Source: an uncultured Pseudomonadales bacterium
GTDB taxonomy: Bacteria > Patescibacteriota > Microgenomatia > UBA1400 > UBA1449
Direction of reading: 5' to 3'
Assembly (NCBI GenBank): GCA_964386355.1
Contig: CAYLQQ010000002.1
Location: 45,374-109,373 of the forward strand
DNA: 64,000 nucleotides
Part shown: positions 28,848 through 30,809 of the stretch, piece after piece
How positions within the stretch are numbered: the first letter of the stretch is position 1
Layout of the letters: each line of letters opens with the position of its first letter
Notes under the pieces: model-generated
The model's database searches: none
Told to the model about the DNA's origin: nothing
Seen by the model: the letters and a program-made list of their open reading frames with translations, nothing else
Program-made: the position numbers and the translations under genes

Positions 28848-30809
28848 ATGCTCATGTGGTATTTTAGAAAGCTATTTCAATATTTACTGTTCTTTATTGC
28901 AATCACTTCTGTATGGGGTAAACCAGCGTATGCTGCTGATCCAGTTTCGTTTAGCTTTAATGACTTTACTGCAGGTGGAGCTAAGCGTGCAGGCGTTCCA
29001 TTTTACGTAACTATTACAGCGCTAAATAGTATGTATGTGACTGAAACTACGTTTAATGGCTATGCAATTTTAACCGACGATACGGGGACGATTTCACCTA
29101 CACAGACTGGTAATTTTGTAAATGGAGTATGGTCTGGTGTAGTGTATATTACGCAAGCTTCGGAAGATAACAATATAAAGGTTGAATACCAACCCGGATC
29201 TCCTCAATATGTAACGAACTCTTCTGCTGGTTTTACGGTATTACCTGATTCTCGAATTAAATACGTTTCCATTGTAAGTGGGAATAACCAATCCGGTACG
29301 GTATTTGAACAGCTTGGAAGCAGTCTTGTAGTGAAAGTAACAGATCCGTTTGACAATCCCATATCAGGTCAAATAGTTAATTTTGCAATCACAAGTTACC
29401 CGGTATTATCAACTGGACAGGTACTGAGCAGTACATCAGGATCTACAGATGCCAATGGTCGAGCGAGTTCGGCTCTGACTCTAGGCAAAAAGGCAGGTAC
29501 ATATGTGGTTACTGCTAATGTGACATCAGGCAACATGGATCGTGCTATGTTTTACGAAACAGCAGTAGCTGGACCAACTATTAGTGTAGATGTATTGCCT
29601 AAAATGGCTGTTTTGCCTACAGGTACGAGTCAGCAGTTTGAAGCTAAAGGGTACGATTTATTCCGGAATGAGAAGATCCTGAATACTGTCACATGGGCTG
29701 TGGTAAATAGAGGAGGATCAATAGATGCAACGGGAATATTTTCAGCAGGTCAAGTTACAGGAAATTATCAGAACACGATACGGGCAACAGCAGATGGAAT
29801 ACAGGGATATGCAACAGCTAACATAGTTGTTGGTGGACAGGTTGAGGTAGCTTCATCGGGAGCAAGTCAAAATGGGTCAGGTAATACAACTATTTCAGAA
29901 ATAAATCAGGTTATCGTAGATCCTGATTTTATCCAGGCTTTGTCAGGAGCGACTATCCCAATTACTGCCACGGCTGTAGATGCCAATGGAAGTGTTGTCA
30001 CGGGAGTTGCATACACGTTTGAAATATCTGGTGATTTGGGAACCTTGACATCACAAACACCCAATACTGTGTTGCTTACTGCTTCTGAGAATGGAGTAGG
30101 AGCCATTACGGTTACAGCTACTCAGGGGAATGTGACTAGAGTAGCAAAAATTGTCGGTTCTGTCGGGACCGGCTTGGATAGGAGATTAGTAATCGAACCA
30201 ATAGCAAGTCCTCAGCGGGTTGGAGAACCGTTTCTTATCTCAATAGCTGCAAAAGACCAATTTAACAACTTTATTACTGATTATACAGGACCATTGGCAC
30301 TGGCTGATACGACAGGGACGATAGATCCGGCAACTGCTAGTCCCTCTGCTACCGGTGTCTGGTATGTCCAGGGGATTATATCACTAGCTCATGATCAGGT
30401 GGCAGTTACGGTTGCAGGAGATGGTATGATTGGTATATCAAACATATTTACCGTTGAGGGTGAGCCGTTAAAAGAGGATGTTACGTTTGGAGGAGGTTCT
30501 GGCTCTGGCCTTGGCGGTGGGGTAAAAGGAGCTTCAATTGCAGCCCAGATTGAACAATTTTTAAAAGAGAAAGGACTTGCTGGTTCGGGAGGTATTGGTG
30601 TTAAGTATTTGGGGGCAGGCTTGGCTGCAGGGATAGGGATACTTGGTGCCAGTATTGGGGGTGGGATTATGGCCAGCCGTGGTATGGAGGCATTGGGTAG
30701 GAACCCTTTTGCGAAAGGAAGGCTTAAAATGAATTTATATTTAGGACTTTTTGTTTTTCTGGCGGTTGCCGGTTTTGCTCTGACAGCCGCCATATTTATT
30801 TTAAGATAA
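28848..30809 (+). CDS. Secreted multi-Ig-like-domain protein fused to a C-terminal F-type ATPase subunit-c-like hairpin that lacks the ion-binding carboxylate
   Basis: Signal peptide ...[14 protein letters not shown]. Big_1-like module ([22 protein letters not shown]...[26 protein letters not shown]), Big_2-like modules, an internal duplication and a Gly-rich linker follow. The last 72 aa (30591..30806) read [72 protein letters not shown], which is the c-subunit helix-loop(RxP)-helix pattern. The gene occupies the atpE position upstream of atpF-atpH. Confidence 0.75.

Follow-up and report, generated by a model that had tools for sequence, protein, structure and literature searches.

What is the c subunit of an F-type ATPase doing at the end of a large secreted protein, and what can such an enzyme do when that subunit lacks the residue that binds the transported ion? 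This question is raised by a gene in a 64,000-nucleotide stretch of DNA (hereafter the window) from an uncultured bacterium of the GTDB lineage Patescibacteriota; Microgenomatia (assembly GCA_964386355.1, contig CAYLQQ010000002.1, positions 45,374 to 109,373). The gene occupies the position of atpE, the c-subunit gene, and encodes a fusion protein. An original prediction, made from the sequence alone, described one uninterrupted 653-amino acid (aa) open reading frame (ORF) with a Sec signal peptide at one end and an F-type c hairpin at the other. The present analysis agrees on each of these points.

The reading favored here is tentative. The fusion would serve as the c-type rotor subunit in a derived F-type ATPase in which ion translocation has been lost and ATP-driven rotation is coupled to surface domains. 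The likelihood of this is put somewhat below even, and that estimate covers the whole chain, i.e., that F1 hydrolyzes ATP, that it turns the ring, and that the energy is passed on to the surface as motion or torsion. Proton pumping by the enzyme has probably been lost.

The helix 2 carboxylate and its partnership with subunit a are deemed universal and essential in rotary ATPases, and here a whole lineage departs from them. Selection in this lineage still maintains F1, the stalk, and the ring subunit; the carboxylate has been dropped and, as far as is visible, subunit a as well. The hosts appear, from their sequences, to make up a large branch of the candidate phyla radiation (CPR), with Beckwithbacteria and other Microgenomates-type lineages. 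Metabolic reconstructions of CPR bacteria usually assume that the F-type ATPase makes ATP or, when reversed, builds membrane potential. These assumptions would be wrong here.

Homology of the Tail to Subunit c

The tail of the fusion is recognized by the Pfam model of the c subunit, ATP-synt_C (PF00137), over residues 588-643. The score is 24.1 bits with the whole protein and 31.2 bits with the last 82 aa (cut-off 24). Among NCBIfam models, those of F0F1 subunit C are nearest to the tail, at 15-31 bits against equivalog cut-offs of 44-135 that are not reached. A profile of the tail aligns with solved c subunits without gaps, with E values down to 5e-7 among PDB c subunits, and the two best matches include Bacillus PS3 (1WU0/6N2D, E 6.5e-7). 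The AlphaFold2 (AF2) model has a two-helix hairpin (residues 583-616 and 623-652) around the loop G617-R-N-P620 (30696-30707), and helix 1 carries a G-x-G-x-G packing motif. A true c-subunit homolog in the atpE slot is supported by these matches.

The GRNP loop and the absence of the carboxylate had both been predicted, and both are borne out. The ion-binding Glu56 of PS3 aligns 18 residues past the loop proline with Leu638 of the fusion (codon 30759-30761), and helix 2 has no Asp or Glu at all. In all fused proteins, the carboxylate position is Leu, Ile, Val, or Met, and no acidic residue occurs anywhere in helix 2. No family member has a polar or charged residue in the membrane core of either helix. 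Without the carboxylate, a ring is unable to move H+ or Na+ past subunit a.

The inner, tightly packed part of known c rings consists of helix 1, the loop contacts gamma and epsilon, and the ion is carried by helix 2, on the side of subunit a. Across 48 homologs of the fusion, G591, A593, G595, G597, G600, G604, G605, and G617-R-N-P620 are invariant. Helix 1 (0.81) and the loop (0.83) are the segments with the highest identity to the window protein, and helix 2 is at 0.46. Mean pairwise identity of helix 1, loop, and helix 2 is 0.84, 0.77, and 0.59 in the fused proteins versus 0.62, 0.78, and 0.63 in canonical CPR c subunits. This pattern, with helix 1 and the loop kept and helix 2 relaxed, fits a ring whose packing and F1 binding persist and whose interface with the ion and the stator is gone. 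Because the packing motif and the loop are kept, we infer that the hairpins form a ring.

Many canonical CPR c subunits (L045-L117) have Asp rather than Glu at the ion-binding position (...IAVTDALAIF...).

Relatives and the Wider Family

A search of 5.8 billion proteins returned approximately 86 full-length homologs of 613-690 aa, which stem from NCBI, JGI, ENA, and Logan assemblies. They are 46-82% identical and share the architecture and the missing carboxylate. Every one of them has the hairpin with its G-R-N-P loop and lacks acidic residues in helix 2. The names Candidatus Beckwithbacteria or Patescibacteria are attached to some, and some carry the automatic annotation 'ATP synthase F0 subunit C'. 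The fusion is also carried by 19 GTDB species representatives (L007-L025).

These relatives dispose of the concern, raised with the original prediction, that an assembly error or frameshift had joined an adhesin gene to atpE. Nothing speaks for such an artifact, and its probability is negligible. The only frameshifted copies (L023 and L024) are local errors or pseudogenes, and the homologs from independent assemblies and the species representatives have the same single frame. The explanation was rejected on these grounds.

The fusion is not a one-off; it belongs, as a single branch, to a large family whose ectodomains differ greatly. A HMMER search with the tail profile against 1.84 billion cluster representatives gave 239 matches at E<=1e-3. 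Besides the Beckwithbacteria-type proteins, the matches include many long proteins with signal peptides that end in the same hairpin, have no acidic residue in helix 2, and share the loop G-[RK]-G-x-E-A-I-G-R-N-P-[FYLM]-A. Protein sizes include 264-290, 616-756, 1,386, and 2,000-2,670 aa. The ectodomains range from ~190 to 2,600 aa and appear unrelated to one another. An alignment of 24 family sequences is gapless, with the invariant core A-x-G-R-N-P-x-A.

The genes for members of 680, 756, and 264 aa each stand first in an operon that continues with b-like and delta-like genes and then with alpha, gamma, beta, and a short epsilon; the operon of the 264-aa member has divergent stalk genes. Two giants (2,577 aa and 2,653 aa; L033 1467-19428 and L053 2483-19993) are followed by three inserted genes and then b and delta. 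Among the genes that follow the giants are one for another giant secreted protein (2,414-2,474 aa) and one for an ABC transporter of the MacB/FtsX type. The giant of L033 has faint NHL/beta-propeller-like Pfam matches. A sortase gene lies directly upstream of the 756-aa member (L036 6417-7028; L037 1574-2185), and the 756-aa protein has no LPXTG-like motif.

In a neighbor-joining tree of beta subunits, built without bootstrap values, all fused-operon sequences make up one long-branched clade apart from the canonical CPR sequences, a grouping that may merely follow organism phylogeny.

Operon and F1 Genes

The gene had been placed directly upstream of atpF-atpH. This is clear for delta, and the b-like assignment is weak because the score lies below the NCBIfam cut-offs (Table 1). 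The b-like gene is homologous and in the same position in all related operons. No terminator-like site is present in the 76-nt spacer between the fusion and the b-like gene. Downstream, greA comes after the tRNA gene that ends this unit, and a terminator-like site is located at 32320-32335.

The operon is continuous in most relatives. There, a divergent gene of ~190 aa, up196, is followed by fusion-b-delta-alpha-gamma-beta-epsilon, e.g., on a 1.29-Mb metagenome contig (L038). The order from the fusion to epsilon is found in at least 14 of the 19 species-representative loci and in the distant members of 680, 756, and 264 aa. It is the canonical order atpEFHAGDC, with the fusion in the atpE slot and the atpB slot empty.

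The F1 of the window has its catalytic motifs. Beta has [21 protein letters not shown] and VPADDFSDP, and alpha keeps the P-loop and the SVSRIG arginine finger. The window holds one alpha and one beta only. Nearly every sequence of the fused clade has intact catalytic motifs; for L034/L035, the member that diverges most, the motifs detected were limited to the P-loop of beta, a variant of GERIREG, and the arginine finger of alpha.

Two further features of the F1 genes were considered and set aside. The short epsilon was rejected as the mark of a hydrolysis-only enzyme because many canonical CPR epsilons are also 76-84 aa and so are without the C-terminal helical domain. X796, with ~15 predicted transmembrane helices, was rejected as a substitute for subunit a because it has no homolog in other loci and no Pfam match. 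Apparently, it was inserted among the F1 genes in this lineage only.

Table 1. Features of the fusion gene and the associated ATPase genes in the window.
Feature	Position	Strand	Basis
F1 alpha, 565 aa, N-terminal extension	5483..7180	+	Pfam ATP-synt_ab, 240.9 bits
F1 gamma	7274..8158	+	Pfam ATP-synt, 151.7 bits
X796, 796-aa polytopic membrane protein between gamma and beta	8165..10555	+	ORF; no Pfam match
F1 beta	10558..11973	+	Pfam; catalytic motifs intact
Short epsilon, ~86 aa, N-terminal domain only	~12063..12323	+	ORF; homologous to ATP-synt_DE_N genes ending related operons
up196, divergent 196-aa cytoplasmic helical protein	28170..28760	-	tblastn, jackhmmer; no Pfam match
Fusion gene (atpE position), 653 aa	28848..30809	+	Uninterrupted ORF
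Fusion parts in order: signal peptide, five beta-sandwich domains, tether, c-type hairpin	28848..30809	+	Pfam, AF2
Sec-type signal peptide, residues 1-29, predicted cut after AYA	28848..28934	+	Sequence reading by eye; AF2 helix
Ectodomain, five Ig-like beta-sandwich domains	28947..30458	+	AF2
Tether: Gly-rich stretch, conserved juxtamembrane amphipathic helix (561-574), second Gly-rich stretch	30468..30602	+	AF2, conservation
c-subunit hairpin	30603..30806	+	PF00137; gapless alignment to solved c subunits
b-like peripheral-stalk subunit, 172 aa, N-terminal transmembrane helix and long helix	30886..31404	+	NCBIfam F0F1 subunit B, weak, 28 bits, below cut-offs
Delta (OSCP), 192 aa	31432..32010	+	Pfam OSCP, 57.8 bits (cut-off 22.3)
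tRNA-Glu(CTC), convergent, ends fusion-b-delta unit	32012..32085	-	Rfam, ARAGORN

The Empty Slot of Subunit a

Subunit a is encoded by atpB. A metagenome scan with the loop pattern yielded fused loci together with canonical short c genes that have Glu or Asp at the expected position. After de-duplication, and with at least 1.5 kb of upstream sequence required, atpB was present in 0 of 26 fused loci versus 39 of 39 canonical CPR loci. The Fisher p value of ~1e-18 is uncorrected for phylogeny and, because the loci are phylogenetically related, describes the pattern only and is not an independent-sample probability.

The search reached up to 10 kb on either side of each locus and covered the 64-kb window. 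Subunit a was sought by its R-x-x-x-N motif, by single-sequence phmmer, and by a jackhmmer profile grown from one seed to ~65 CPR sequences. Nothing was found in the window or in any fused locus, and the controls all scored. The profile detected atpB immediately upstream of every canonical c gene that had room for it. The best database matches of the atpB genes in canonical loci carry Parcubacteria names, and in a database-wide atpB search the best 120 of 7,792 matches are all Parcubacteria-type. A second c-like ORF is likewise absent near every fusion, and neither gene occurs in the ~0.7 Mb that surrounds the fused loci.

The original prediction offered two options for the hairpin, a plain membrane anchor or a ring that bears ectodomains and cannot translocate ions in the normal way. 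The second is strengthened by the lack of atpB in all 26 fused operons. With no carboxylate in the ring and no a subunit in the operon, the complex would be unable to move H+ or Na+ by the known mechanism.

Signal Peptide, Ectodomain, and Tether

The N-terminus of the fusion, [32 protein letters not shown], was read by eye as a basic n-region (R7 K8), a 15-residue hydrophobic core, and an A-x-A site. Residues 2-22 are a helix in the AF2 model. In the comparison of fusion homologs, the signal peptide is the segment with the lowest conservation. Once it is removed, the mature fusion would have ~550 aa of extracellular sequence.

The AF2 model is a single-chain prediction built from 48 homologs, with a mean predicted local distance difference test (pLDDT) score of 81.6. 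The five domains span residues 34-132, 139-240, 246-327, 354-439, and 446-537. The second is a Big_1 domain, matched by Pfam over residues 160-230 with 41.3 bits (cut-off 34.9). Of the Big_1- and Big_2-like modules that had been predicted, the former is thus found, and Big_2 has no Pfam match in the fusion at E<=1. The Invasin_D3 score of 21.7 bits does not reach the cut-off, which is 33. Neither an outer-membrane beta-barrel anchor nor a C-terminal receptor-binding domain is present in the fusion by Pfam or in the AF2 model. A Foldseek search of the model against the PDB returned only generic Ig-domain arrays, including the S-layer proteins SbsC, Sap, and EA1 as well as invasin.

The predicted duplication of a module at both ends of the ectodomain is real. 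The first and last modules match each other in BLASTP with E 5e-8 and 36% identity over 50 aa, and the last (D5) is the best-conserved module of the ectodomain. The end module (G.PF..I.A.D...N....Y.G...L.D.TGTI.P) is also found in surface proteins of Chloroflexota and Thermoplasmata metagenome-assembled genomes (L026-L030). Apparently, it is an extracellular domain of wide occurrence that has no name.

Glycine-rich stretches at residues 330-348 and 547-565 are disordered in the model. The second is the Gly-rich linker of the original prediction, and pLDDT is below 50 there and at residues 576-586. Such a linker between ectodomain and hairpin could suit a delivery device, in which the ectodomain is cleaved after export and acts alone, leaving a free carboxylate-less hairpin. 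A sortase gene lies upstream in one subfamily, in line with this idea. The fusions have no LPXTG-like or sortase-type motif near the linker, and sortase processing was rejected for that reason. The juxtamembrane segment is conserved, and cleavage would still leave a ring that is unable to bind ions. Delivery of this kind is highly implausible.

As predicted, no convincing internal start would produce a hairpin by itself. Among relatives, in-frame starts before helix 1 vary in position and are mostly not accompanied by a Shine-Dalgarno core; at five of the examined loci, this stretch has no in-frame start codon. Because the internal starts are not conserved, a free c subunit is not a conserved product.

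Rotor or Scaffold

Under the proposed rotary mechanism, the fusion would be exported by Sec, its signal peptide removed, and its hairpin inserted with the loop in the cytoplasm. The Gly-rich inner helix, which is retained, would let the hairpins come together as a ring. This ring would dock onto gamma and epsilon of a catalytically competent F1 by way of the invariant E-A-x-G-R-N-P-x-A loop, with F1 held by the b/delta stalk. F1 would then hydrolyze fermentation-derived ATP and turn the ring.

Both termini of c subunits face outward, the N-terminal helix lines the interior of the ring, and the loop contacts gamma and epsilon. Because of this topology, the ectodomains would emerge at the center of the outer face of the ring. 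A crown of 8-15 tethered ectodomains would rise there from the inner helices, and the energy of ATP would be converted into surface movement or torsion for adhesion, host contact, surface movement, or envelope remodeling.

In its most general form, the proposal would make the c ring a transmembrane shaft. Cytoplasmic ATP hydrolysis would spin or twist an extracellular crown, from modules of ~190 aa to beta-propeller giants of 2,600 aa, and the outputs would be adhesion, host attack, surface motility, or envelope remodeling in CPR bacteria. This reading, which amounts to a new kind of molecular machine, is possible, though doubtful. If it is true, the 'ATP synthase' of metabolic reconstructions neither makes ATP nor builds membrane potential in these cells. 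The c ring, the sole bilayer-spanning part of the enzyme, would carry large surface domains and be a candidate for a new motor and for a new means of transferring mechanical energy across a membrane.

Several observations weigh against a rotor that no longer pumps ions. The operon of the window is split, with alpha-gamma-beta-epsilon (5.5-12.3 kb) located 17 kb upstream of the fusion; the split after delta is common to its closest relatives, L023 and L025. At L005, the fusion is not beside b and delta. Without subunit a, we know of nothing that would hold the b stalk stationary in the membrane against the ring. As modeled, the Gly-rich tethers would be poor transmitters of torque unless the ectodomains make up a rigid assembly. 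SecF and SecD are encoded at 35291-37529 (-), and an ion gradient is the usual driving force of SecDF. A membrane potential must therefore come from somewhere in this cell, and the question arises of what its source is if the F-type ATPase cannot pump. Given the reach of the searches, atpB and a canonical atpE may lie elsewhere in the genomes. Divergent a subunits have been missed by homology searches in Toxoplasma (PMC6059495) and Tetrahymena (PMC2903591).

Some of these observations would suit a normal ion-coupled enzyme whose atpB and canonical atpE are encoded elsewhere, with the fusion as a minor member of a mixed ring or as a conditional alternative ring. The searched sequence extends only 10 kb or less per side of the loci, apart from the 64-kb window, SecDF points to an ion gradient, and mixed rings with carboxylate-less sites are established for Acetobacterium woodii and V-type proteolipids. 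This explanation is nevertheless quite unlikely. Subunit b, which normally travels with a and c, stays beside the fusion, and the sequence around the fused loci has no second set of genes. Canonical CPR loci always keep atpB and atpE adjacent to the remaining operon. Helix 2 is relaxed as a whole, and 10-15 bulky N-terminal chains on the inner helices, or even one, would make an odd accessory.

A static anchor or scaffold is rather unlikely. Here, the carboxylate-less ring would be a platform that displays adhesin- or S-layer-like ectodomains and docks F1, and no torque would be passed outward. In the absence of subunit a, the b helices would directly bind and lock the ring, and F1 would be a regulated or idle ATPase or a cytoplasmic attachment site. 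With its flexible Gly-rich tethers and generic Ig array, the fusion is reminiscent of S-layer and adhesin proteins, the ectodomains vary in size as expected of display modules, and no stator partner is conserved throughout the family. The F1 catalytic motifs, gamma, epsilon, delta, and b are constrained across deep divergence, which is hard to explain for a passive dock, and the loop between rotor and F1 is the most conserved element. A mere membrane anchor, the other option of the original prediction, is disfavored on the same grounds, i.e., because the gene stays with b, delta, and an intact F1 across deep divergence and has an invariant F1-contact loop. Even if static, the ring would be an unprecedented membrane anchor for surface proteins.

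Neighboring Genes and Other Features of the Window

The up196 gene adjoins the fusion in nearly all Beckwithbacteria-type loci, even at L005, where b and delta are elsewhere. Its product is predicted by AF2 to be a helical bundle (pLDDT 91.8), and the best fold match in the PDB has an E value of only 0.08. In 16 loci, up196 is followed by p231, a single-pass membrane protein with an extracellular beta-rich domain (e.g., L003 8699-9394, -); p231 is absent from the window. Neither gene is found beside three more distant family members that were examined, and so they are not core parts of the system. No stator partner conserved across the whole family was found.

Genes of the TMEM260_N family, which we take to be GT-C-type protein O-mannosyltransferases, flank the ATPase operon at L002 (6720-8765, 13156-15048, and 19374-21317) and L003 (17406-19094). 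The three copies at L002 surround one operon, and one of them interrupts it. These proteins could glycosylate the Ig-like ectodomain or could simply be abundant in these genomes.

A non-homologous partner might in principle replace subunit a, with ions bound by something other than a carboxylate. The candidates would be p231, a GT-C-like protein, or the b helix. The close linkage of up196 and p231 to the fusion in one clade is compatible with this, as are the divergent stator subunits that were missed in other lineages (PMC6059495, PMC2903591). Such an ion route is very unlikely, with the membrane core of both helices devoid of polar or charged residues in every family member and with no candidate partner conserved across the family. 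We also know of no rotary ATPase that works without the ring carboxylate.

Other genes of the window include two adjacent ones for secreted proteins of 751 aa (1895-4150, -) and 369 aa (4229-5338, -), neither with a Pfam match. By eye, they apparently share a C-terminal module, which reads TLPFGNLSVG.PKFGSHKLTV.SNT.YGY.VSVK in one and has a close counterpart in the other. Two aminoacyl-tRNA synthetases have additional C-terminal domains. A class II aspartyl/asparaginyl-type enzyme (19930-21810, -) has a YbaK-type aminoacyl-tRNA editing domain (PF04073, 97 bits), and a class I lysyl-tRNA synthetase of 764 aa (32996-35290, +) has a B3/4 domain (PF03483, 75.6 bits).

Comparison with Known Systems

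No description of this architecture was found in the full-text literature searched, which leaves out most subscription-journal papers, so prior notice is possible.

The closest known system is the bacterial F1Fo enzyme. Its c subunit (atpE; e.g., Bacillus PS3, 6N2D, and the c11 ring of Ilyobacter tartaricus) is a two-helix hairpin of the same length that aligns without gaps, with the same Gly-rich inner helix and an R-N/Q-P cytoplasmic loop. In both systems, the gene is the first ahead of atpF-atpH-atpA-atpG-atpD-atpC, with a complete, intact F1 and stalk. Unlike the canonical c subunit, which stands alone with ~70-90 aa, the fusion of 653 aa has a signal peptide and an ectodomain (190-2,600 aa in the family) and has Leu, Ile, Val, or Met at the ion site. 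It scores far below the NCBIfam equivalog cut-offs, and its operon lacks atpB. Judged by its sequence, the fusion appears to descend from subunit c and to depart from it in the carboxylate and the small stand-alone form, as its operon does in the adjacent atpB.

Hairpins without a carboxylate also occur in working rotor rings. The c1 subunit of A. woodii is a carboxylate-poor member of a mixed F/V-hybrid ring, and V-type and some archaeal proteolipids are similar in this respect. The mixed rings of A. woodii and the V-type enzymes differ from the fusion system in that hairpins with carboxylates are present alongside, subunit a is present, ions are pumped, and no ectodomain is attached. An archaeal V-type c subunit with a lost ion site has been described (PMC9171764).

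The type III secretion and flagellar export ATPase FliI-FliJ-FliH is another system in which homologs of alpha/beta, gamma, and b/delta are kept and the membrane sector is replaced by a different ring. FliI-FliJ-FliH is hexameric and homo-oligomeric, with neither a c-type ring nor an ectodomain, whereas the fusion system has a bona fide F1.

The type 2 and 3 F1-like clusters of Mycoplasma and the gliding motor of M. mobile resemble the proposed rotor in that an F1 engine is used beyond ion-coupled ATP synthesis. In M. mobile, an F1-type engine powers the movement of surface adhesins. The type 2/3 clusters have seven genes, with extra alpha- and beta-like paralogs beside a normal operon, and are without c, b, and delta. 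The fusion operon is unlike them in that c-like, b-like, and delta genes are present in canonical order and the c ring itself would be modified. The comparison is meant as an analogy and would imply no homology beyond F1.

The ectodomain is of a kind found in invasin, intimin, and S-layer Ig proteins (Big_1), i.e., a tandem array of beta-sandwich domains. Those proteins differ from the fusion in their anchor, which is an outer-membrane barrel, an SLH domain, or a sortase signal; the predicted anchor of the fusion is a c hairpin in the cytoplasmic membrane. Should the mechanical reading prove right, the architecture would be categorically new.

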